Shown here in pieces: positions 4,559 to 56,808 of a stretch of DNA of 64,000 nt. The stretch comes from Gemmatimonadota bacterium. GTDB taxonomy: Bacteria > Gemmatimonadota > Gemmatimonadetes > Palauibacterales > KS3-K002. Within the stretch, counting starts at the first letter, position 1. Each line of letters begins with the position of its first letter. The position numbers and the translations under genes are program-made. The notes beneath the pieces were generated by a model. The model searched no databases, was not told the origin of the DNA, and saw only the letters and a list, made by a program, of their open reading frames with translations. The stretch spans positions 48,507 through 112,506 of the forward strand of contig JBDHJS010000001.1 of NCBI GenBank assembly GCA_039586795.1. Direction: 5' to 3'.

Positions 4559-7459
4559 CTAGCGATGCTCCCGGCTGGCGAGCAGCGTCAGGCGCTCCGC
4601 CGCGTAGTCGACCAGCGGGCGAAGTTCGGGGTCGCAGTCGCGCCACAGCGCGATGAAGGTTTCGTAGTGATGGGCAGCCAGGGCATCGTCGCCCAGGCGC
4701 TCGTAGATCTCGGCGCGCTTGAGATGGGAAGGGGCCAGGTAGATCAACTCGCGCGACGAGCTGGCGGTGAACGAACTATACCAGTTGAGAGCTTCCTCTT
4801 CGCGACCGGCGGCGGCGAGCAACTCGGCCCGGGTATAGCGCTCGAAGGCCTGCGCGTAGAAGAGTGAGGCGGCCATGTTCTGGTACCAGCTTTGTACCGT
4901 CGCCTGCTCCAACTCGTGGATGGCATCCTCAGGTTCTCCCTCGGCGATAGCGACCTGAGCGCGGATCGACTGGGCGAGGTCGCCCGCCAGCTCGGTCACC
5001 TCGTCGGGTCCGTCGAGCTGCCCCAACTCCTGTGCGTACTGCAGCGCCGCGCCGCCGTCATCGAGTCGCGCGCTCAGAAGTCCCAGCAGGTAGAGCCTCA
5101 GGTGCGCGTGCGCTTCATCGTGAACGCTGGACCACGTCATGCGCGCCGCGCTCTGGCGCCACTCGTCTGACGTCCAACCCCGAAGCTCGGATCGAATGGC
5201 TTCCAGCTCCGCGTCAGTTGTACCCAGAAACGGAGTGGCGGAAAGCAGCGCCCTGTACTCGAGCGCCGAAACGGCATCAAGGGAGGACGCGATATTCAAT
5301 TCTACCCTGGCGTCCCGCCATTTCCCCTGAGCCAGGAGCAGCGATGCGCGGATCGTGTGTCCCAGCGCGCGTACATCGGAGGGGTAGGCGGGGTCGGTGA
5401 GCATGCCGACGACTCCCACGGCGCCATCCAGGTTGAGCGTGAAGACCGGGACGCTCCAACTCATGACCATCAACTGGTCGAGCTCGGCGAATCGCATCTC
5501 GGACATGACTTGCTGCTGACCCTGCTCGTCACCGATCACGAACTCCCGCAGCGCGCGAACCTCGAGCGCCCTGTCGTCGTCGGGATGAAGCGCCAGGTAA
5601 CGTTCGACCAGCTCTACCAGCTCATCCGCATCCCCTTCCAGGGCGGAAATCCGGATCAAGTGCGTTAGGGCGTGGACTTCGTTGGGCTCGAAGAACAGGA
5701 CGCGCTCGAAGGGCGCTCGGGCCTCACCGATGGAGCGACCGTAGTACGGAGCGAAGTGGAAGAGAAGCTCACCCAGCTGGATCCACGCCTCAACGTCATC
5801 CGGGTGCGTGCTGAGGATCGCGCGGTAGAGACGCTCCGACTCCCTGGGATCGCCCAGCCGGTAGGCGTGAAACGCCTCGAACAGGTCACGGTCGTGATCG
5901 GAGAGCCGACTGCTCAGGCGGTAAGCCTGTTGGGCGCTGAGTTCGACGAGATCGGAGCGCACCATCCAGTCGGCGGCGACGCCGAGGCGATACCAGGCGA
6001 GGGCGAAGGTGGTGTCGAGCTCGGTAGCGAGCTGGAACGCTTCGGCCGCCGGCGCGAAGTACCCCGCGCGAAACGCCCGCTCCCCCTCCAGGTAAGCCTT
6101 GAGCGCCGGTAGCGAGCTGGTCGTCACTTCGGCGATGCGAGTCGCGCCGCTCCCAAGGCTTTGGCCGACGAGAAGCTGCGCGGCTACCTCGTCGACGAGA
6201 TCGAAGAGACTCTCAGCACCGCCCTCGGCAGATGCGTGGGCGACGGCGTCGAGCCCCGCATTCGGATCGAACAGCGACGCGTCGAGCTTCAAGTTTCCGC
6301 GCACCTCGACGATACTGCCGAGCACGTAGAGGCCAGCGCCCAGACCGCTTGCAATACCCTGCGCCTCCTCAGGATCCGGCACGCCCAGGCCTTCTTGCTC
6401 CACCAGGCTCAGCACGGCGCGCGGGTCGGCGCTGCGCAATTCTCCCGCGCCGTCCAGCGCGGTGCTCAGCAAGTCGACCATCCCCATGCTGAGATAATCG
6501 AAGCTGCTGCTGCCACCCACCGAGAACGGCAGCACGGCGATCCGCATCTGCGAGACCGGCGGCGATCGTGGCATCCACAGGTCACGCAACCCCCAGGCGC
6601 CGCCGACGACGATCACCAGCGCGAGCGTCGCGGCCAGCGCTTTCGACAGCAGCGTGGCATGGCGTGCGGCCGATCCTTCCTGCGCTCGGTTGAGCGCAGC
6701 GCGAAAGGCGCCCGCGTCGGCCCAGCGGTCGGCCGGCTTCATGGCGAGGGCGCGCTTAAGGACTCGAGCCAGATTCTGGGGTACGCCCGTCCAGTCCGCC
6801 TCCTTGACCGGCGTGAGCATCGACCAGCGGCGGCCGGTGAGGGAGTCGTAGAGTACCATTCCGACGGCATAGAGGTCGGTTTGCGTCGTGACTTCATCAC
6901 CCGTGACCTGCTCCGGCGCCATGTGGCCCGGCGTCCCCACCCGCTGGCCCGGCTCGGTGATGGTGGAATCTCTATCGTGGTGCTTGGCGATCCCGAAGTC
7001 GCCGAGCAACGCATGGTCGTCAACGAGGAAGATGTTGCTCGGCTTGATGTCGCGATGGACGATGCCGCTCCCGTGCACCGTTTCCAGCGCCGAGAGCATG
7101 TCGTTCCCCAACTTCACCGCCTCTTCACGGGGCAGCGGGCCGCGATCCAGCCGCTCCTTCAGCGTCTCCCCTTCCACATAGTCCATGATGTAGTAGAAGG
7201 ACTCGCCGATCTCGCCGGCGTGGTAGATGGAAACGACGTTGGGATGCCGGATGCGAGCCAGGATTCGGGCTTCTTCGAGGAGACGTTTCGATGCCCGGGG
7301 GTCATCGAGATCGTGACGGTGGACCTTCACGGCGACGGTCCGGTCCAGCACCGTGTCGTGGGCCAGGAAGACCGTCCCCATCCCACCGCTCGCCAGCTCC
7401 CGCTCCACCTCGTACTGAGGCGGAAGAGCTTCGCGCAGCCGCTCGAGCAGAGAGCTCAT
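4559..7459 (-). CDS. membrane Ser/Thr protein kinase with large C-terminal TPR-like extracytoplasmic domain
   Basis: N-terminal Hanks kinase domain (GxGGMGTV, VAVK, HRDIKPSNI, DFG, APE), one TM segment (LALVIVVGGAWGL), then ~650 aa helical repeat region. Confidence 0.85.
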   Translation of the reverse strand: MSSLLERLREALPPQYEVERELASGGMGTVFLAHDTVLDRTVAVKVHRHDLDDPRASKRLLEEARILARIRHPNVVSIYHAGEIGESFYYIMDYVEGETLKERLDRGPLPREEAVKLGNDMLSALETVHGSGIVHRDIKPSNIFLVDDHALLGDFGIAKHHDRDSTITEPGQRVGTPGHMAPEQVTGDEVTTQTDLYAVGMVLYDSLTGRRWSMLTPVKEADWTGVPQNLARVLKRALAMKPADRWADAGAFRAALNRAQEGSAARHATLLSKALAATLALVIVVGGAWGLRDLWMPRSPPVSQMRIAVLPFSVGGSSSFDYLSMGMVDLLSTALDGAGELRSADPRAVLSLVEQEGLGVPDPEEAQGIASGLGAGLYVLGSIVEVRGNLKLDASLFDPNAGLDAVAHASAEGGAESLFDLVDEVAAQLLVGQSLGSGATRIAEVTTSSLPALKAYLEGERAFRAGYFAPAAEAFQLATELDTTFALAWYRLGVAADWMVRSDLVELSAQQAYRLSSRLSDHDRDLFEAFHAYRLGDPRESERLYRAILSTHPDDVEAWIQLGELLFHFAPYYGRSIGEARAPFERVLFFEPNEVHALTHLIRISALEGDADELVELVERYLALHPDDDRALEVRALREFVIGDEQGQQQVMSEMRFAELDQLMVMSWSVPVFTLNLDGAVGVVGMLTDPAYPSDVRALGHTIRASLLLAQGKWRDARVELNIASSLDAVSALEYRALLSATPFLGTTDAELEAIRSELRGWTSDEWRQSAARMTWSSVHDEAHAHLRLYLLGLLSARLDDGGAALQYAQELGQLDGPDEVTELAGDLAQSIRAQVAIAEGEPEDAIHELEQATVQSWYQNMAASLFYAQAFERYTRAELLAAAGREEEALNWYSSFTASSSRELIYLAPSHLKRAEIYERLGDDALAAHHYETFIALWRDCDPELRPLVDYAAERLTLLASREHR

Positions 7460-8640: not shown

Positions 8641-9909
8641 TCAGGCCGCGTCGGTGCCTTCGTGATCGATGGAAGGTGGCTTGCCGTACTCCCTACTTCG
8701 TAGCGTGAGAACCGTGACCTCGGGAGGCGTGCCGATGCGAAACGGGATTCCCCAGTAGTTGGTGCCCGGGTTGATGTAGAGCAGCGATTCCCCCTGACGA
8801 TGGACTCCCATCGACAAAGCCAGGAATGGTGAGGCGGCGTTCCAGTTGCGGCTGGGAATTGCCAGCTGGCCGTAGTGGGTGTGACCGCTGAGCGTCAGGT
8901 CGACTCCGCGAGCGGCGAGTTCCGGCCACAAGGCGGGGTTGTGCGCCAGGGCGAGAACCGGCTCGCCCTTCGGAATACGAGCGAGCGTGCGATCGATATC
9001 GGGCGCCGCATTCCGACCTTCGTGATTCCACGCTCGTCCGGCGGGGTCGCCGGCACCGGCGACCCAGAGCCGGTCGCCGCCGCGCTCAACCGCAACGGCC
9101 TCGTTCACCAGCACGGTGAAGCCGCCATCCAACAGCCCCTGCCGCACCGGACCCCAACCCGCGTAAACATCGTGGTTGCCCGCGATGGCGAAAACGCCGA
9201 GCGGAGCATCCAGGTCGCTGAAGGCTTCGTTGAAGTACTCGACATCGCGTGGGAAATCGTCGACCTGGTCGCCGGTGAAGACGATGATGTCGGGATGCGC
9301 GTTCCGCGCCGCATCCGCGACACGCGTCAGGTAGCGCCGCGACGTGTGCGGACCGACATGTAGGTCGGAAATCTGGACGATACGCAGCCCATCGAAGTCG
9401 TCGGGCAAGTTTGGCAACAAAACATCGAGGTGCCGCACGACCAGTCGTCGTGATCCTAGATAACCGGCCAGCGAAACGATACCCAGCAACGCACCGACCG
9501 TCGCCAAACCCCAGCGGCCCGCCACGCCTCCTGCTCCGAACCACACACCCACGGCGGCCACCGTCACACCCGCCACGGCAAGCAGCGGCATGACCAGCAT
9601 GGCGTACCAAAACGGCCGGAGCACGAACAATCGAGTGAGCGCGGAGGGATAGGTGGCGCCGCCCAGGCCACGCACCAAGACGAACACCGGTAGGCCGCCC
9701 AGCATTGCTACGCCGGCGACCGTCACCCACCCGCCGGGCAGGACGGGTTGGAGCAACGAACCCACCACCAGCCAGGACCCGCCGAGCCATACCGCGATGA
9801 ACGTGAGCACCCGGCGAAGTGGAAACGTCCGCCTTCGCTTCACTTCAGCGCTCTGAGCGCGCTCCGATTCCGGCCGCTGGATCGTGTCCAGCGCTCTGTC
9901 TCCCGTCAC
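8641..9909 (-). CDS. membrane-bound metallophosphoesterase (calcineurin-like phosphoesterase) with N-terminal multi-TM domain
   Basis: N-terminal 4-5 hydrophobic helices, then MPE motifs: DLH, GDQVDD, GNHD, GHTH; start overlaps the copA stop by 4 nt (9906-9909). Confidence 0.75.
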
Positions 9910-12440
9910 CGGGTCGCCCCGCTGATATCGACCTTTCTGAGGCGCGCGCTGTTGCTGACGACGTTGATGGAGCTGAAAGCCATGGCGGCTTCGGCGATGG
10001 CCGGGTGGAGGAAGCCCAGAATCGCGACGGGTATCGCGATCACGTTGTAGAAGTAAGCCCAGAACAGGTTCTGTCGGATCTTGCGGAACGTGGCCCGAGA
10101 TAGACGGATCGCTTTCACAACCGCCGACAGATTGCCCTGCACGAGGGTCACGTCTGCGGCCTCGATGGCGATATCGGTGCCGGTGCCGATGGCGATACCC
10201 ACGTTCGCTTGCTTGAGCGCCGGCGCGTCGTTGATGCCATCGCCGACCATAGCGACGTCGCGGCCTTCGCTCTGCAACCGACGCACCTCGTCCACCTTCT
10301 GATCGGGCAGTACCTCGGCGATCACACGATCGATGCCGACTTCTCGGGCAATGGCGTTCGCGGTGCGTTGATTGTCGCCGGTAAGCATGACGGTCTCGAG
10401 GCCGAAGCGCTTGAGCTCCGCGATGGCTTCCTTCGAGTCGTCTTTCAGCGTATCGGCCACGGCGATCACCCCCGCAAGTCGATCGCCGACCCCAACAAAC
10501 ATTGCGGTCTTGGCCTCATCCTCCAGGCGATCCAGTTCCGTGGCCAGCTGATCGAGCGTGATATCGTGTTCCTCCATCAACCGGGCGTTCCCGACGACCA
10601 CGAGCTGCCCCTCGATCGTCGCGACGACGCCGCGACCGACGGCCGCTTCGAACCGTGATGCGCTACTGGCAGTCACACCGCGCTTCAGCGCTTCAGCCAC
10701 GATGGCGCTACCCAAAGGATGTTCGGATCCCAGCTCGGCGCCGGCAGCGTACCTGAGCACTTCGTTCGCATCTCGGCCCGCCGCCGGCACGATATCGGTC
10801 ACACCCGGTTCGCCCCTGGTGATAGTGCCTGTCTTGTCGAGGACGATCGTGTCGACCTCTTTGAGAGTTTGGATCGCCGCTCCGCTCCGGAACAACACAC
10901 CGTTCTCGGCGCCCATGCCGGTACCGACCATCAGCGCCGTAGGCGTGGCGAGGCCGAGGGCGCACGGACAGGCGATGACCAACACGGCCACTGCGGCGAA
11001 TATCGCCAGCGAAACGCGACTCAAGCTCGGGTCGACCCACGGCAGAAAGCCCGAAGCCCATTCGGCGATCGAAGCGAAGGCGCCGGGGAAGATGAGCCAG
11101 GCGAGGAACGTGGCGGTGGCAACCGCCAGAACCGTCGGAACGAAGACGGCGGTCACACGATCGGCGAACTGCTGTATCGGGACCTTCGTGCCCTGGGCCT
11201 CTTCCACCATGCGGATGACGTTGGCCAGGAAAGTGTCCTCGCCGACGCCGGTGGCCCGGACCCGAAGCAGTCCTTCTTTGTTGATCGTGGCACCGATGAC
11301 CCGGTCGCCCTCAGCCTTCTCCACCGGCATCGATTCGCCCGTAGCCAGTGACTCATCGACTGAAGAGTGGCCGCCAATCACTTCGCCGTCGGTGGGAATC
11401 TTCTCGCCGGGCCGCACGATCATCACGTCGCCGACTTCAACCTCTTCGATGGGCACCTCGACCTCGGCACCGTCCCGCTCGACGCGAGCGGTCTTCGCCT
11501 CCAACGACAGCAGCTTCTGAATCGCGGCGGACGTACGACCGCGGGCCCTGGTCTCCACGTAACGGCCGGTGAGGTGGATGGCCATGATCATTCCACCGAC
11601 GCCCGCATAGTTGAGCAGCTTGGGCGCAAAGCCCAGATCGTAAGCGACGGTGACGAAACCAGTGGCGAAGGCGACGGTGGAGCCGATGGCGATGAGGGTG
11701 TCCATCGTCGGCGTGCCGTTCACCAGACTCCGGAAGCCAGCGCGAACTGTGTCCCAGCCCCAAACGAACAGGACCGGTGCGGCGAGGACGATCATCCCGA
11801 TGTCATAGGCGAGCGCGGAGGGCCACATGACACCGAAGAACATGTGGGGGATCATCCAGGCGATGATCGGCGCGGTCAGCACCCAGGCGAAGACCATCCG
11901 GCGTTGCGCATCATCGACCTTACGCTGGTCTTCCTCGAGACGCTCCCGCTCCCGTGCCAGACGGCGCTCGGCGCCCGCGCGCTCAACAGAAGCCACGCCG
12001 TAGCCCGCGGCCTCCACCGCGGCACGCATGTCATCGACGCGAACCTGACCGGGGATGTGCGACACGGTCGCCTTGTGAGTCGCGATGTTCACAGCCGCCG
12101 AGTCCACGCCATCCAGTTCGGCCAGAGCCTTCTCTACCGCTGCCGAGCACGAGGCACAGTGCATCCCCTCAACATCGAGAACGACCGTCTGCGGCTTCGC
12201 CTTGACCTCAAAGCCCGCCTTCTCCACGGCACGGCGAAAGTCATCGAGCCCGACCTGGCCGCCGTAGTATTCAACCGTCGCCTTTTCGGTTGCCAGGTTC
12301 ACACTCGCCTGCTCCACACCGTCCAGTCCGGCCAGCGCTTTCTCCACCGCCGCGGAACACGACGCGCAGTGCATGCCGCCGATCTCGAGCGTCTCTTTCT
12401 TCAATGTTCGTTGAGCCATCATCAGATTCCGCCAAAACAA
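9906..12440 (-). CDS. copA: copper-translocating P1B-type ATPase with two N-terminal HMA domains
   Basis: Two [18 protein letters not shown] domains, [10 protein letters not shown] transmembrane metal site, DKTGTIT phosphorylation motif, [10 protein letters not shown] hinge. Confidence 0.9.
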
Positions 12441-12505
12441 CGGGCGCCGGCCCCGGAATGTTCTCCGGAGCCCACGCCCGAGTCTATTCAGTTCAGACCG
12501 CTTAC

Positions 12506-12552
12506 TGCTTAGCGCTTACCACCCACTACCTACCACCTACCACTCACCACCT
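12506..12552 (-). repeat. G-rich GGTAGG-repeat element in RNA sense immediately 3' of stop codon (CTACC repeats on plus strand)
   Basis: ccacccactacctaccacctaccactcaccacctaccg directly abuts the stop codon of the upstream minus-strand gene; related copies at 13770-13812, 21737-21776 and 21846-21881. Confidence 0.5.
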
Positions 12553-13216
12553 ACCGACCGCCACCGCCCTCTTCGTGGTGCACCCGATGCCGCATCCGCA
12601 TACCCTGCCCATCGCCCTCACCTTCCATATGCATACGCATCTGCCGCATACCCTGACGGCGAAATACCTCGGCGCCTTCCTTCCAAGTCTCGAACTTCTG
12701 GCGCTGCGCATCGTTCAGCACGCCCAACGTCTGGCGCTCCACGTCGATGAAGCTCTTGGCCTGGGCGGTGCGGAGTCGAGCCAGCTCGTCGATGGCGCTC
12801 TCCATCGCGTCGTAGTCGTCGGCTCTGCGGGCTTCGGCGAGCGCTTCGGCCTGCTTCTGCATCTGCTCGCGCATGCCGGTCATCAGCGCCTGGTGGCTGG
12901 TGTGTACGCCCTCGAGCTGAGTGACCTGCTCCTCGGAGAGCTCGAGATCGTCCTTGAGGCCGATCAGGAAATGCGGGCCGAGGTGCGCCGCTCCCATGCG
13001 GGCGCTGGTCCTCATGTGCCGCATGCCCTGCCGCATACCCCGCATGCTCATCCGGCCCTGTCGGCCCATCTGGCGCATCATGCCGCGGTGAGCGCGCCGC
13101 ATCTGCGCCGTGGTATCCTGCTCTGCTTCTTGAGCAGCGCCAACCGCAGGTAGCGCCAGGAGCGCCGCCAACGCGAGTGCTGCTGCTGCTGGGAATCGCA
13201 TATTCATCTTGCCCAA
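12551..13216 (-). CDS. periplasmic Spy/CpxP/ZraP-family protein (LTXXQ motifs) with Met- and His-rich metal-binding-like termini
   Basis: Signal peptide; LSEEQVTQL and LNDAQRQKF LTXXQ-type motifs; Met-rich N-region (MRQMGRQGRMSMRGMRQGMRHM) and MRMHMEGEG...HRVHHEE C-tail; lies between csoR and copA. Confidence 0.55.
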   Translation of the reverse strand: MGKMNMRFPAAAALALAALLALPAVGAAQEAEQDTTAQMRRAHRGMMRQMGRQGRMSMRGMRQGMRHMRTSARMGAAHLGPHFLIGLKDDLELSEEQVTQLEGVHTSHQALMTGMREQMQKQAEALAEARRADDYDAMESAIDELARLRTAQAKSFIDVERQTLGVLNDAQRQKFETWKEGAEVFRRQGMRQMRMHMEGEGDGQGMRMRHRVHHEEGGGGR

Positions 13217-13298
13217 ACCTCCATCAAAGCTGTCGGTGCCGCGTCTACAATACTGACAGCTAACGATCCGAAAACGCTAGCTGACGGTCGGCGCCCGA

Positions 13299-13601
13299 TC
13301 AGCGAACGTAGCGGCCCAACAGGTCGACGATCTCCTGCCTCACCTGCTCCGCCGCCGGACCGCCCTCCATGATGGCGTGGGCGGCGCAGCGATCCAGGTG
13401 GTTCCCCAGCAGTTCGCGCTCCACGGCCCGGAGCGCCGAATGGACGGCGGTGCACTGCTGGAGGATGTCGGGGCAGTATCGCTCTTCGTCCACCATGCGC
13501 TGAATTCCTTCCACCTGCCCGCGGACTCGGGCAAGACGCTTGAGCAGGTCGCGCTTGGTGTTGTCGGCGATACCCATTGCATGTGAGGGATTCTCTGTCA
13601 T
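13299..13601 (-). CDS. csoR: copper-sensing transcriptional repressor, CsoR/RcnR family
   Basis: DUF156-type four-helix bundle with the conserved Cys (YCPDILQQ), His (HSAL) and C-terminal Cys (DRCAAHA) ligands; start taken at internal Met (MTENPSH), verified as CAT at 13599-13601. Confidence 0.8.
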   Translation of the reverse strand: MTENPSHAMGIADNTKRDLLKRLARVRGQVEGIQRMVDEERYCPDILQQCTAVHSALRAVERELLGNHLDRCAAHAIMEGGPAAEQVRQEIVDLLGRYVR

Positions 13602-13628
13602 CCGGCAGGGCCTCCTCTGTAGAGAGTA

Positions 13629-13652
13629 TATGCTATACTGGGGTATAGTATA
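13629..13652 (-). promoter_or_regulatory. candidate CsoR operator: inverted repeat TATGCTATAC-TGGG-GTATAGTATA
   Basis: Near-perfect 10-bp arms around a G-tract, 28-50 nt upstream of the csoR start; resembles the GC-tract-centred palindromes bound by CsoR proteins. Confidence 0.45.
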
Positions 13653-13769
13653 AGAAACCCGTCCCGTCTGCAACCCCCTCCCTCCTGCTAGTGCTCACGC
13701 TCGTGACCCTGTTCAACTCTATCACGAGCAGGAGATGAAAAGAGATACGGCCGGCCCCGTGACACGAAG

Positions 13770-13812
13770 CCGACCGTCTACTGTCTACCCTCTACTGTCT
13801 ACCGTCTACCGC
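13770..13812 (-). repeat. GTAGAC/GGTAGA-repeat element (RNA sense) immediately 3' of the diheme cytochrome c gene
   Basis: gaccgtctactgtctaccctctactgtctaccgtctaccg overlaps the stop codon at 13806; same family as 12506-12552 and the 21.7-kb inverted repeats. Confidence 0.5.
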
Positions 13813-14552
13813 GCCGATCGCTCCCGTAGGTAGTTCGCGATGGCATCCGCCTCACGGTCTGTGAGCGGCGCGATATCCATGGCGTTCATCAAGCCACGCA
13901 TCCGGGCAACGATGGCGTCCCACCCGGCGGCGGTGTGTGCGCGCGGCGACGGCGGCGCGTGACAGATGGCGCACCTCTGCATGAAGAGGTCGAGGCCGGG
14001 TCCGTCCGTCAGTTCGCCGGGTTCGGCTTCCGGCAACGCGTTCCTCTGCAGGTAAGAGAGGATCGAGTCGGTCTGCTCCGGCGTCGGGTACTCGGCCGTC
14101 TCGAGTCCAGCCATCACCACGTCGCCGATCAGGCCGGTTGTGAGCGGGCCGCCTAGTCGGTACTCCAGGGTCTGAGCCCGGTAAAGCATGTTGCGCAGCA
14201 AATACGGCCATTCGGTCGCAGTATGCATCTTGGGTGACGGCAGCCAGTGGCACTGGATGCAGTAAACTTGGAGAAGGCCGGCGCCGCGCGAGCCGGGTTC
14301 GGGCAGCTGCTCCGGTGTGTAGTTGATGGGCGGCAGACCGGAACCGACGGACGCGATCAAGCGCCAGCGCGTACCGCGTTCCATGGCGGCGGTGGCGGTT
14401 CCACCGAGCTCGGCGAGCACGCTGTCGACGACGGCGATGTCGACCTCCTGGTTCGCCTGCTCCTGGACGCAGCCGGCCGCCACTACCGTGAAAGCAAGCG
14501 CGGCGAGGACACCACCCAGTCGCGACCACTTCTCCCGGCTCTGTCTGTGCAT
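13806..14552 (-). CDS. diheme c-type cytochrome lipoprotein
   Basis: Lipoprotein signal (VVAAGC); two CxxCH motifs (CIQCH, CAICH), each followed by similar ATEWP/AAGWD segments, suggesting an internal duplication. Confidence 0.7.
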   Translation of the reverse strand: MHRQSREKWSRLGGVLAALAFTVVAAGCVQEQANQEVDIAVVDSVLAELGGTATAAMERGTRWRLIASVGSGLPPINYTPEQLPEPGSRGAGLLQVYCIQCHWLPSPKMHTATEWPYLLRNMLYRAQTLEYRLGGPLTTGLIGDVVMAGLETAEYPTPEQTDSILSYLQRNALPEAEPGELTDGPGLDLFMQRCAICHAPPSPRAHTAAGWDAIVARMRGLMNAMDIAPLTDREADAIANYLRERSAR

Positions 14553-18545: not shown

Positions 18546-18592
18546 AATCCCCGAACCTCGTAATCCCCGAACCCCCGAATCCCATCACCTCC
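18546..18592. repeat. copy of dispersed CGAATCCCC/AATCCCCGAAC repeat element
   Basis: AATCCCCGAACCTCGTAATCCCCGAACCCCCGAATCCC; 24/27 identity to 46360-46402; located between convergent genes mlaD and 18585..18971. Confidence 0.5.
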
Positions 18593-20470: not shown

Positions 20471-21733
20471 ATGAGTAACTCCCTAGACATAGCCGAGCTT
20501 AAGGCCAAATCGGTACAAGACCTCCATGAGATGGCCGAGGAGCTCAACATCCAGAACTACTCCGGCCTGCGCAAGCAGGACCTGATCTTCCGCATCGAAC
20601 AGAACTTGCTCGACTCCGACGTGATCCTCCGCGCCGAAGGCGTGCTGGAGATTCTGCCGGAGGGCTACGGTTTCCTGCGCAGCCAGGACTGGAACTATCT
20701 GTACGGTCCGGATGACATCTACGTGTCTCCATCACAGATCAAGCGATTCGATCTGCGGACCGGCGATACCGTATTGGGCCAAGTGCGGCCTCCCAAAGAG
20801 GGCGAGCGATACCTGGCGCTGCTCAAGGTGGAGGTCGTCAACGGTGAGGATCCGGAGAAGTCGAAGCATCGGATCAGCTTCGACAATCTGCGGCCCCGTT
20901 ATCCGGAGGAGCGCATCACCCTGGAGCGCAAGAACGGCGACATCGCCAACCGGATCATCGATCTGGTCGCGCCCACCGGGAAGGGTCAGCGCGGCCTCAT
21001 AACCTCGCCGCCGAAGGCCGGTAAGACAATCCTCCTGCAAAAGGTCGCCAATGCGATCACCGAAAACCACCCCGACGTTCACCTCATCGTTCTGCTCATC
21101 GACGAGCGTCCGGAAGAGGTGACGGACATGGAGGAGCACGTCGATGCTGAAGTGATCGCGTCGACGTTCGATGAGCCAGCCGATCGTCACACTCAGGTCG
21201 CCGAGATGGTGATCGAGAAGGCCAAGCGTCTCGTAGAGCACAAGCACGACGTTGTGATTCTGCTCGACTCGATCACTCGATTGGCTCGCGCCTACAACGT
21301 CGTTGTGCCCCACTCGGGTAAGATCCTGTCCGGTGGTGTGGACGCCAACGCGCTTCACAAGCCGAAACGGTTCTTTGGCTCGGCGCGTAACCTGGAAGAG
21401 GGCGGCAGTCTGACGATCATCGCGACGGCGCTCATCGAGACCGGTTCCCGAATGGACGAGGTGATCTTCGAGGAATTCAAAGGCACCGGCAACATGGAGA
21501 TTGTCCTCGATCGACATATCGCCGACAAGCGCATCTTCCCCGCAATCGACATTAACCGATCCGGAACGCGCCGCGAAGAATTGCTGCTCGACGAGAAGAC
21601 TCTCAACCGGATGTACCTGCTCAGAAACTTCCTCGCCGATATGCCGCCGGCGGAGTCGATCGAGTTCTTGATTCAGAGGATGAAGCGGGCGGAGAATAAT
21701 GACGAGTTCTTGGATTCGATGCAGGAAGGGTGA
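20471..21733 (+). CDS. rho: transcription termination factor Rho
   Basis: Full-length (420 aa) match to the Rho architecture: N-terminal RNA-binding OB domain, P-loop [16 protein letters not shown] and R loops. Confidence 0.95.
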
Positions 21734-21736
21734 TTG

Positions 21737-21776
21737 GGCGTAGGGGGTTGAGGGTAGAGAGTAGAGGGTAGGAGGC
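21737..21776 (+). repeat. left arm of ~40-bp inverted repeat (GGGCGTAGGGGGTTGAGGGTAGAGAGTAGAGGGTAGG), a GTAG-repeat element 3' of rho
   Basis: Starts 4 nt after the rho stop; reverse complement matches 21846-21881 with few mismatches. Confidence 0.55.
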
Positions 21777-21803
21777 GGACGCGCAGCTGACAGTCAAAGA
21801 ACA

Positions 21804-21852
21804 GAAACGGCCGGACGTGCTTGCCGCGCGCCGGCCGTCTTCTTTCCCCCTA
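21804..21852. terminator. bidirectional rho-independent terminator candidate between convergent rho and PRT genes
   Basis: GC-rich hairpin (AAACGGCCGG...CCGGCCGT) followed by TCTTCTTTCCCCC on the plus strand and preceded by GAAACAGAAAC (T-run on the minus strand). Confidence 0.5.
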
Positions 21853-21881
21853 CTCCCTACCCTTCACCCCCTACGCCCTAC
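21846..21881 (-). repeat. right arm of inverted repeat; GTAG-repeat element 3' of the phosphoribosyltransferase gene
   Basis: CCCCCTACTCCCTACCCTTCACCCCCTACGCCC is the reverse complement of the 21737-21776 arm; abuts the stop codon at 21878. Confidence 0.55.
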
Positions 21882-22426
21882 GCGTCACCACTCTCCCCAA
21901 GCAAATCTTCATACTCCGGATTAACCACCAGCCGTCCCGACTCACTCTCAACCACCTCCCTATCCCAGGGGAAGACAACAATGCCGTCCGTGGCAAGGGC
22001 GAAGTAATCGGGCTGGTAGCCGCCTTCGCGGACCAGAGACGTGGCGGTGCGCACCTCCGTGGGCCCGACGTCGCGTACGGCGGCGAGGGCGAGGCGCATC
22101 GTGTCGCCGCTGTCACAGATTTCATCGACGAGTAGCACATTGCGGCCCGCCAGTTGCGGCGGTGCGACGGACAACACCTCCGGGCGCTGAAGCGAGCCAT
22201 CGTCGTCCTCGCGGCGGGTGATCTTTATGGCGTAGAACGGCTTCTGAAGCATGGCGGCAACGACAGCGCCGGGGATCACGCCGGCGGCGGCGATCCCGAC
22301 AACGACATCGGGCTCGAAATCGCGAGCCACGGTAATCCCGAGAACGCGGCAGAGCTCGCCGAACAACTCCCAAGAAAGCTCCAGAACGCCATCGCCGTGC
22401 AGGTCGGTGAAATCGAGTTCGGCCAC
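21878..22426 (-). CDS. phosphoribosyltransferase-family protein (PRPP-binding, HGPRT/XPRT-like)
   Basis: PRPP-binding loop VLLVDEICDSGDTM. Confidence 0.65.
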   Translation of the reverse strand: MAELDFTDLHGDGVLELSWELFGELCRVLGITVARDFEPDVVVGIAAAGVIPGAVVAAMLQKPFYAIKITRREDDDGSLQRPEVLSVAPPQLAGRNVLLVDEICDSGDTMRLALAAVRDVGPTEVRTATSLVREGGYQPDYFALATDGIVVFPWDREVVESESGRLVVNPEYEDLLGESGDA

Positions 22427-35537: not shown

Positions 35538-35539
35538 TG

Positions 35540-35610
35540 ATTCGGGGATTCGCTCAGCCAATCGCCGAAGCCGCGAATCTGGTGACCCCCGAATCGCTCC
35601 AATCCCTCCG
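35540..35610. repeat. CGAATCCCC/GGGGATTCG motif cluster (ATTCGGGGATTCGC ... CCCCCGAATCGC)
   Basis: Same motif family as 18546-18592, 46262-46402 and 60420-60460. Confidence 0.4.
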
Positions 35611-46261: not shown

Positions 46262-46402
46262 GACCGGGGGGATTCCGGGTTTCGTGGGTTACAAGGCTCG
46301 GGGATTCGGGGGGAATCGGGGATTGCTTCGCAGGCGGTCCAGGTTTCCCCGGATAATCCCAGAATCTCGTAAGCCCCTAATCCCAGAATCCCCGAATCTT
46401 CA
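46262..46402. repeat. cluster of CGAATCCCC/GGGGATTCG repeat units in both orientations in a 290-bp divergent intergenic region
   Basis: GGGGGGATTCCGGG, CGGGGATTCGGGGGGAATCGGGGATTG, AATCTCGTAAGCCCCTAATCCCAGAATCCCCGAATC. Confidence 0.45.

Positions 46403-54390: not shown

Positions 54391-56808
<2,418 letters not shown>

Follow-up and report, generated by a model that had tools for sequence, protein, structure and literature searches.

In a 64,000-nucleotide stretch of a Gemmatimonadota genome (contig JBDHJS010000001.1 of assembly GCA_039586795.1, positions 48,507 to 112,506; from here on, the window), four tandem arrays of a G-rich heptanucleotide lie at the 3' ends of genes. Each occupies the short spacer between a stop codon and the hairpin of an intrinsic terminator, where it adds 35 to 60 nt of RNA. 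We favor, with moderate confidence, the interpretation that these arrays are heptanucleotide microsatellites of a known G-rich class that abuts open reading frames (ORFs) and that they are kept in orientation by selection. On this reading, the arrays are fast-evolving and do not represent a conserved, dedicated 3' untranslated region (3'-UTR) element recognized by its sequence, as had been proposed in a first-pass annotation of the window.

Four heptanucleotide arrays in the window share one unit design

Tandem Repeats Finder called period-7 arrays with copy numbers of 4.6 to 5.6 at 12517-12555, 13773-13811, 21740-21771, and 21848-21883, and additionally a decayed tail of the first array at 12497-12520. 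Based on these calls and, for the first three, on a pattern scan, we delimited arrays A1 to A4, which follow an LTXXQ/Spy-like gene, a diheme cytochrome c gene, rho, and the hypoxanthine phosphoribosyltransferase gene hpt, respectively (Table 1). The pattern GTAGN3GTAGN3GTAG, allowing at most one mismatch, matched 8 times in the window with 0.09 matches expected, and GTAGRNNGTAGR had 9 exact matches with 0.07 expected. All nine of these two-unit matches fall within the four arrays, with none elsewhere in the 64 kb and none inside genes. The core of the arrays is GT(A/G)R, in which GT is invariant and followed by purines, while the 3-nt spacer made up of the last three positions is array specific; in general form, the unit is GGT-purine-purine-purine-N. 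These data support that all four arrays belong to one repeat family, as the first-pass annotation had stated, and the two array sequences that it quoted were correct. The units contain 51% G and 7% C, and individual arrays contain 19 to 30 G and 3 to 7 C (30 and 7, respectively, in a 67-nt stretch of A1). All four are G-rich and C-poor in mRNA sense, in agreement with the earlier remark that the G-rich strand is the one represented in the transcript.

The arrays had been described as starting 0 to 5 nt from a stop codon. This holds for three of them, which contain the stop codon as their first TAG (A1, 12551-12553; A2, 13806-13808; A4, 21878-21880, within the first unit), but not for A3, which starts 6 nt past the rho TGA (21731-21733). 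A1 is present where it had been placed (12506-12552) but extends further through GTAAGCG/CTAAGCA units that reach 12498. In each array, stops are found in all three frames, and 21 of the 24 units in the window carry a stop triplet (TAG, TAA, or TGA in the same phase), including units with TAG-to-TGA double substitutions.

We note that the 3' end of the LTXXQ gene (12553-12575) encodes a lineage-specific C-terminal tail, ...EEGGGGR, through the G-rich GGCGGTGGCGGTCGG, which continues directly into A1, while LTXXQ orthologs end otherwise, e.g., in ...HQPPGNG. The gene end may have seeded A1 or may have been reshaped by it.

Arrays turn over rapidly at fixed sites

The C-terminus of the cytochrome c, YLRERAxR*, is conserved in all orthologs; therefore, A2 begins at the native stop codon and has neither shortened nor lengthened the protein. 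A period-7 G-rich array follows the cytochrome c gene in each of five close relatives (69 to 100% identity), and the units differ from one to the next; such differences at the same site are seen in relatives with 69 to 88% protein identity. At this flank, the unit is GGTAGAC in the window, GGTGAGC/GGTAAGC/GGTAGAC in L124, GGTAGGT/GGTGAGT in L125, GTGGGTC, which is without stop triplets, in L126, and AGTGAAS in L127. Approximately 45 of the 50 orthologs, i.e., the more distant ones, have the same C-terminus and terminator and no heptamer array after the gene, and two of these carry inverted pairs of the GGGGATTC type (see below) in its place. At the LTXXQ site, the approximately 12 distinct orthologs, representing all that were recovered, have kept the terminator hairpin and have no heptamer array.

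The hpt-rho spacer is similarly variable. In the relative with 88% identity, GGGGTAG/GGAGTCG arrays flank the same terminator; in that with 79% identity, GTAGACA/GGTAGAC arrays lie on both sides; in that with 78% identity, the spacer has just two G-first arms of the GGGTAAG/GGTGGTG type; and in that with 80% identity, there is one array in G-sense for rho. The spacer of the relative with 76% identity, one of five examined, has no array. The C-terminus of Rho, ...MQEG*, is the same in all of these relatives. The unit type of the paired arms is common within a locus and differs between loci, i.e., the arms evolve in concert, and units such as GGTAGAC recur at several loci and genomes. Altogether, orthologous loci that lack the array and have unchanged gene ends were found at the cytochrome c site, at the LTXXQ site, and in one of the five hpt-rho spacers, contrary to what the first-pass annotation had anticipated for a dedicated element.

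Several further arrangements were noticed in the relatives. In L210, the 63-nt hpt-rho spacer consists of two arms only. In L126, a C-rich period-7/14 array with the reverse complement GGTGGTGAGTGGTGGGTGGTGACTGGTG lies at 6869-6896, approximately 85 nt upstream of the csoR start, which amounts to an upstream-antisense placement of the unit type found after the LTXXQ gene of the window. Finally, the contigs of four relatives end shortly past a heptamer array (307 nt in L124, 155 nt in L125, 51 nt in L127, and 54 nt in L209), a pattern suggesting that short-read assemblies are broken by the arrays or by inverted pairs of them. Because the arrays supply real stop codons and the contigs of relatives end nearby, they matter for the annotation of gene ends and for the assembly of metagenome-assembled genomes (MAGs).

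Array orientation follows the polarity of the neighboring ORF

To describe distribution, we used a multi-phylum set in which one genome per species was scanned for four consecutive GTAGR units. This set, which comprises at least 120 loci and is seeded on GTAG, shows distribution rather than counts, and all values derived from it hold among the matches listed. GTAG heptamer arrays were found in at least 15 phyla, including Cyanobacteria, Acidobacteriota, Bacteroidota, Planctomycetota, Verrucomicrobiota, Gemmatimonadota, Chloroflexota, Fibrobacterota, Proteobacteria, Bacillota, phyla of the candidate phyla radiation (CPR), and others; thus, they are not peculiar to this genome. Across 938 kb of loci with arrays, the dominant short tandem repeats had period 7 (294 period-7 and 71 period-14 rows).

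For polarity statistics, genes were called using a home-made codon-usage gene caller that treats arrays as barriers. Naive longest-ORF calling had placed 24 arrays "inside" antisense ORFs, and these placements were rejected as shadow or over-extended ORFs. Among the matches listed, 38 of 57 cases had a gene end no more than 25 nt away on the G-sense side, compared with 5 of 45 cases on the C-sense side (Fisher p = 8e-9); in 10 of the 38 G-sense cases, the stop codon was inside the array. The nearer ORF was on the 5' side of the G strand for 77 arrays versus 23 (p = 5.5e-8), and gene starts were also nearer on this side (median of 46 versus 133 nt; p = 3e-5). Independently of the gene caller, the G-rich run came first in 18 of 19 pairs of adjacent period-7 runs of opposite G/C skew.

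A second sample of 417 kb, which was centered on Gemmatimonadota and picked via the cytochrome c gene and not via repeats (from here on, the unbiased sample), gave the same picture. In these 417 kb, 10 skewed arrays of period 7/8 are adjacent to gene ends and in G-sense, and a further 4 to 5 precede gene starts with their G strand in antisense. No array in this sample abuts a gene end in C-sense, save for one spacer common to convergent genes, and none is inside a called gene. We conclude that the polarity matches the rule of Rehm et al. 2015 (PMC4692102), i.e., the G strand has its 5' end next to the nearest ORF. In practice, the G strand is the sense strand just past a stop codon or the antisense strand just before a start codon. 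The orientation bias that underlay the proposal of a dedicated 3'-UTR element, therefore, generalizes beyond the window (38 of 57 versus 5 of 45), but the proposal as a whole is only partly supported: the array is missing in many orthologs, and the occurrence of the same repeat class antisense upstream of gene starts means that it is not specific to 3' UTRs.

The arrays are related to known heptameric repeats

Rehm et al. 2015 described intergenic G-rich heptameric simple sequence repeats (SSRs) with the units GGGAATC in Xanthomonas and GGGGA(C/T)T in Nostoc (PMC4692102). These repeats lie at most 50 bp past a stop codon in sense, and may overlap it, or antisense upstream of a start codon, and no function was found. 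They form G-quadruplexes (G4s) in vitro, showed no association with mobile elements, and include units (GGGAATC and GGGGACT) that carry no stops yet obey the same positional rule (PMC4692102). The arrays in the window resemble this class in their period of 7, their G-rich strand, their intergenic location, and the position of the nearer ORF on the 5' side; moreover, in both cases inverted pairs also occur, and length and sequence vary among close relatives. They differ in that GGT is followed by purines (GTAG, GTGA, and GTAA), with stop triplets in all frames, in that G-tracts are short and G4 potential is not general, and in that the host is a Gemmatimonadota MAG.

The window itself contains a second G-rich family of period 7 to 8, GGGGATTC/GGGGAATC, at 18.5, 35.5, and 46.3 kb (Table 1). 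The GGGGATTC type is essentially the GGGAATC motif reported from Xanthomonas, and it obeys the same polarity rule. At 18.5 kb, the array occupies the entire spacer of a convergent MlaD gene and a 128-aa ORF, being G-rich in the sense of the minus-strand 128-aa ORF and C-rich in that of MlaD. At 35.5 kb, the pair starts approximately one base past the TGA of an asparaginase-like gene. The pair at 46.3 kb lies between a divergent extracytoplasmic function (ECF) sigma factor gene and a GCS2/CBS gene and exemplifies the antisense placement ahead of a gene start. The GGGGATTC-type family is present in L125 and, after the cytochrome c gene, in L140 and L142, while L124 and L126 lack it.

In many bacterial genomes, no long microsatellites are more common than heptanucleotide repeats. 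Mrazek 2007, as summarized by others (PMC4679880, PMC4692102), found heptamers to be the most abundant among long SSRs of 5 to 11 nt and proposed slippage as their origin. According to these summaries, the SSRs resemble our arrays in their occurrence in large, G+C-rich genomes of nonpathogens, their heptamer bias, and their intergenic location, and the work is a census in which polarity relative to ORFs is not addressed. MacGregor 2015 described direct repeats of the heptamer TAACTGA in Beggiatoaceae, Cyanobacteria, and Bacteroidetes (PMC4679880). As in our arrays, these repeats have stops in every frame of one orientation, which limits coding overlap, and a scattered phyletic distribution; unlike them, arrays of the type in the window follow stop codons or precede start codons in reverse orientation. 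In Xanthomonas, 7-bp units (GGGATTT/GGGAATC, CGATTCC, and others) vary in copy number between strains and are used for typing by multilocus variable-number tandem repeat analysis (PMC8002079), whereas the arrays in the window showed no copy-number variation among four contigs of 99.9% identity. A literature search returned nothing relevant on GTAGGGA-type units and nothing on repeats of Gemmatimonadota.

The short tandemly repeated repetitive (STRR) sequences of cyanobacteria are heptamers with the units CCCCAGT, TTGGTCA, and CAACAGT, and STRR1 is a GGGGACT repeat. They are likewise dispersed, intergenic tandem heptanucleotides and differ in units and phylum; an assignment of the arrays to STRR was rejected because the units in the window are of GT(A/G)R types and the host is a member of the Gemmatimonadota.

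Each array precedes a predicted terminator hairpin

Downstream of each of the four arrays is a GC hairpin that ends in a U-rich tail (Table 1). The hairpin after A1 sits between the array and the copA start and, based on folding, looks like an intrinsic terminator or an attenuator. The hairpin after A2 precedes the csoR promoter, and the last A2 unit doubles as the 5' arm of its stem. When A1 and A2 were folded with these hairpins, the array was unstructured in the centroid. Between A3 and A4, a central hairpin has U-rich tails on both strands; a simple terminator scan did not call it, though it is shown by folding. This hairpin is single copy in the window and has an orthologous counterpart in L208. 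The A3 and A4 arms around it are 38 nt each, 84% complementary, and 67 nt apart, and the compound hairpin of A3, central hairpin, and A4 has predicted energies of -100.7 and -101.1 kcal/mol (z of -8.1 and -8.4) in two folds, either strand. What comes after the U-rich tail of the hairpins is the start of copA or the promoter of csoR and, at 21.7 kb, a C-rich CCUAC array. A scan against Rfam gave only generic long-hairpin (microRNA precursor) matches, far below the gathering threshold of each family.

Among the stop-abutting arrays of the multi-phylum set, 3 of 38 were followed by a hairpin and a U tract, which is no more than in the control. The layout of stop codon, array, and terminator is, therefore, local to this lineage. 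We also observed that, in many phyla (L063 to L123 and multi-phylum loci, e.g., L013, L021, L039, L101, L107, and L114), inverted heptamer arrays alone make up the whole hairpin, with a loop of 4 to 20 nt and no separate GC stem. In this lineage, L210 shows a similar arrangement.

How the arrays may arise and what they may do

On the reading that we prefer, replication slippage would generate and homogenize the arrays, while the paired arms would probably be homogenized through template switching or conversion between inverted repeats, and selection would filter the site and orientation of the arrays that persist. In the G-sense orientation, the gain or loss of 7 nt could never extend an ORF, the RNA leaving the gene would be a poor substrate for Rho, and the C-rich complement would face transcripts incoming from downstream. 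We propose that this orientation may be favored by the combination of safety against ORF extension and a Rho-related asymmetry. The arrays would then be tolerated, perhaps mildly useful filler with strict polarity.

Several observations argue in the opposite direction. Pure slippage from random seeds fails to explain why GT is invariant and followed by purines in four independent arrays. Nor does it account for the stops in 21 of 24 units here and in almost every unit of the unbiased lineage sample, as opposed to approximately 45% expected from the letters of the units (a hand estimate made on units of the unbiased sample). No variation in array copy number was seen among the four same-population contigs of 99.9% identity. 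All five close relatives have kept an array after the cytochrome c gene, a retention that may be due to function rather than inertia. Finally, it is not obvious how the proposed orientation filter (Rho and ORF extension) would account for the class found ahead of gene starts, for which reason we hold this filter loosely. Taken together, all readings in which the arrays have a polar function (insulation, exonuclease blocking, or protein binding) nevertheless appear to us rather unlikely.

The functional reading that best withstands the data, although we regard it as unlikely on its own, is that the arrays are polar insulators at ORF boundaries. Outgoing RNA, being G-rich and C-poor, would resist Rho and may block 3'-exonucleases, and stable RNA:DNA hybrids may slow RNA polymerase ahead of the terminator; an incoming transcript, by contrast, would read the C-rich, G-poor complement as a Rho-loading site, so that antisense transcription or read-through is stopped. 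The order of the arms in 18 of 19 pairs among the matches listed, the terminator hairpin directly downstream of all four arrays, the almost C-free sense strand of three arrays, and the persistence of the cytochrome c array through a full turnover of its units in five relatives are as expected for such an insulator. However, most orthologous sites have an intact terminator and no array, and a canonical hairpin with a U tract follows stop-abutting arrays only at the control frequency (3 of 38). Moreover, typical Rho-loading regions are longer than the 35 to 60 nt of these arrays, which also counts against it. The same polarity also puts C-rich repeats into 5' leaders, where Rho loading is not obviously useful (PMC4692102).

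A more general version of this idea, which we consider quite unlikely, is that the GT-purine heptamers and the GGGGATTC type jointly form a pan-bacterial polarity mark at ORF boundaries, with outgoing transcripts reading the G-rich strand and incoming ones the C-rich strand. This mark would be read by a general machine, most plausibly Rho, which would act on the C-rich strand, or a ring-shaped, as yet undiscovered protein that binds XAG-N4. If so, the arrays would tune termination and antisense insulation, and their copy number would be an evolvable dial. If Rho or an RNA-binding protein indeed reads the polarity, this would amount to a general, previously unrecognized layer of transcription-unit insulation.

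The arrays could also serve as translational backstops, in which a stop codon every 7 nt and in all frames catches read-through and frameshifted ribosomes; we judge this improbable. The stops in all frames of every array and in 21 of 24 units fit this idea, as does the use of TGA and TAA units (GGTGAGC, GGTAAGC, and AGTGAAG) in orthologous arrays, and GTGGGTC is the sole stop-free unit in the unbiased lineage sample. Against this, G-rich, C-poor heptamers contain stops largely through composition. Moreover, TAA and TGA are not enriched across phyla: among 393 non-TAG triplets in 232 GTAG arrays, TGG (70), AAG (68), GAG (53), and CAG (45) dominate, with 19 TAA and 2 TGA (among the matches listed). 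In decayed flanking units of the same matches, conservation is highest for G (0.89), intermediate for A (0.67), and lowest for the first base, T (0.57). Arrays upstream of starts carry stops on the strand where they cannot act, the stop-free GTGGGTC of L126 is at the same site as A2, and the stop-free units GGGAATC and GGGGACT follow the same rule (PMC4692102). The repeat does produce stops in three frames, while selection for these stops is, in our judgment, improbable. A "treadmilling" model, in which older units would be found at the 3' end, received no support: 289 decayed units were 5' and 257 were 3' among the matches listed.

Distinctly improbable, in our view, is an RNA element recognized through structure or by a protein, either a G4 or an XAG-N4 platform for a ring-shaped protein like HutP of Bacillus. 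Using ViennaRNA with G4s enabled, we obtained predicted G4s in A1, A3, and A4, with three quartets in A4, and none in A2; the related heptamers of Rehm et al. form G4s in vitro (PMC4692102). Site I of HutP in the Bacillus hut terminator consists of three single-stranded XAG motifs with 4-nt spacers 5' of a GC-rich stem (PMC2425495). It is matched by the UAG-N4 repeats directly 5' of the hairpins at all four sites, and the conservation in decayed units (G, then A, then first base, among the matches listed) resembles XAG. HutP, however, also needs XAG triplets at another site on the 3' side of the stem (PMC2425495), and no second XAG-rich site is present 3' of the stem in the same RNA at the four sites. 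Unlike HutP sites, the arrays in the window have 5 to 8 units and are not conserved, and two of them have convergent genes on either side, a setting in which antitermination would serve no purpose; a HutP-like platform was, therefore, rejected. Nor is predicted G4 potential common to the arrays: A2 lacks a prediction, a G4 is impossible in some orthologous arrays, and several orthologous arrays are without G-tracts (AGTGAAS and GGTAGAC) or without AG (GTGGGTC), such that neither XAG nor G4 potential is conserved. The Rfam matches are generic and below gathering thresholds. Furthermore, arrays of this type occur in at least 15 phyla among the matches listed. HutP is a Firmicutes family.

Finally, it is very improbable that the arrays are remnants or termini of mobile elements resembling MITEs (miniature inverted-repeat transposable elements) or repetitive extragenic palindromic (REP) sequences inserted at gene ends, a candidate that we rejected: the structure at 21.7 kb does resemble terminal inverted repeats around a core, and similar units recur at several loci and genomes, but the core is single copy in the window and corresponds to an orthologous terminator in L208, A1 and A2 consist of direct repeats without a partner, each arm is in turn a run of tandem heptamers that varies in number and type, no obvious target-site duplication was found on reading the sequence (a systematic search was not run), and Rehm et al. 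found no association with mobile elements (PMC4692102).

Returning to the microsatellite interpretation, our analysis adds to the known class a new, widespread unit type, GTAG/GTGA/GTAA, with the GTAG type in at least 15 phyla among the matches listed; evidence for polarity that is independent of gene calling; and a turnover series at fixed sites with concerted change of arms. It also adds that, across phyla, decayed units do not preferentially keep stops and that G4 potential is not common to the arrays of the lineage.

Genomic context

The window has a G+C content of 62%, and the Joint Genome Institute (JGI) metagenomes 3300041024, 3300041075, and 3300041087 contain contigs that are 99.9% identical to it. 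Homologs of its cytochrome c and phosphoribosyltransferase genes bear Gemmatimonadota or Gemmatimonadales names. In the csoR-copA region, the gene identities given in the first-pass annotation were borne out, i.e., CopA, LTXXQ, a CsoR-type repressor, and a cytochrome c with two CxxCH motifs (Table 1).

Table 1. Coordinates of arrays, hairpins, and genes in the 64-kb window
Feature	Coordinates	Strand	Basis	Units in mRNA sense or description
A1, after LTXXQ/Spy-like gene	12498-12555	minus	Tandem Repeats Finder, pattern scan	GGTAGGT GGTGAGT GGTAGGT GGTAGGT AGTGGGT GGTAAGC GCTAAGC AGTAAGC
A2, after diheme cytochrome c gene	13770-13810	minus	Tandem Repeats Finder, pattern scan	GGTAGAC GGTAGAC AGTAGAG GGTAGAC AGTAGAC GGTCGG
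A3, after rho	21738-21775	plus	Tandem Repeats Finder, pattern scan	GCGTAGGGG GTTGAGG GTAGAGA GTAGAGG GTAGGAG G
A4, after hpt	21846-21882	minus	Tandem Repeats Finder	CGTAGGG CGTAGGG GGTGAAG GGTAGGG AGTAGGG GG
GC-rich hairpin with tail	12432-12479 (hairpin 12442-12479)	minus	Fold	GGGCGUGGGCUCCGGA...UCCGGGGCCGGCGCCC, tail GUUGUUUUGG
Terminator-like hairpin	13737-13777 (hairpin 13747-13777)	minus	Fold	ACGGUCGGCUUCGUGUCACGGGGCCGGCCGU + AUCUCUUUUC
Bidirectional terminator-like hairpin	21795-21847 (hairpin 21807-21838)	both	Folds	ACGGCCGG...CCGGCCGU
GGGGATTC-type array	18546-18584	minus	Tandem Repeats Finder	Period 8
GGGGATTC-type inverted pair	35539-35597	plus		G-rich arm first
GGGGATTC-type inverted pair	46268-46325 and 46355-46401	both		G-rich arm first on each strand
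copA	9906-12440	minus		CopA
LTXXQ/Spy-like gene	12551-13216	minus		Met-rich
csoR-type repressor gene	13299-13673	minus
Cytochrome c gene	13806-14552	minus		Two CxxCH (diheme)

An AT-rich palindrome, TATACTATACCCCAGTATAGCATATA, at 13627-13652, directly upstream of the csoR-type repressor gene, is probably a CsoR operator; it overlaps a match resembling a promoter that lies on the plus strand, opposite to the gene, at 13620-13649. Elsewhere in the window, gyrB (54391-56478, minus strand) contains an in-frame 15-nt/45-nt tandem repeat at 56330-56448. This repeat encodes a Lys/Ala-rich N-terminal extension of GyrB with a weak match to the histone H1-like protein HC2, and such a basic tail is unusual for a gyrase subunit.

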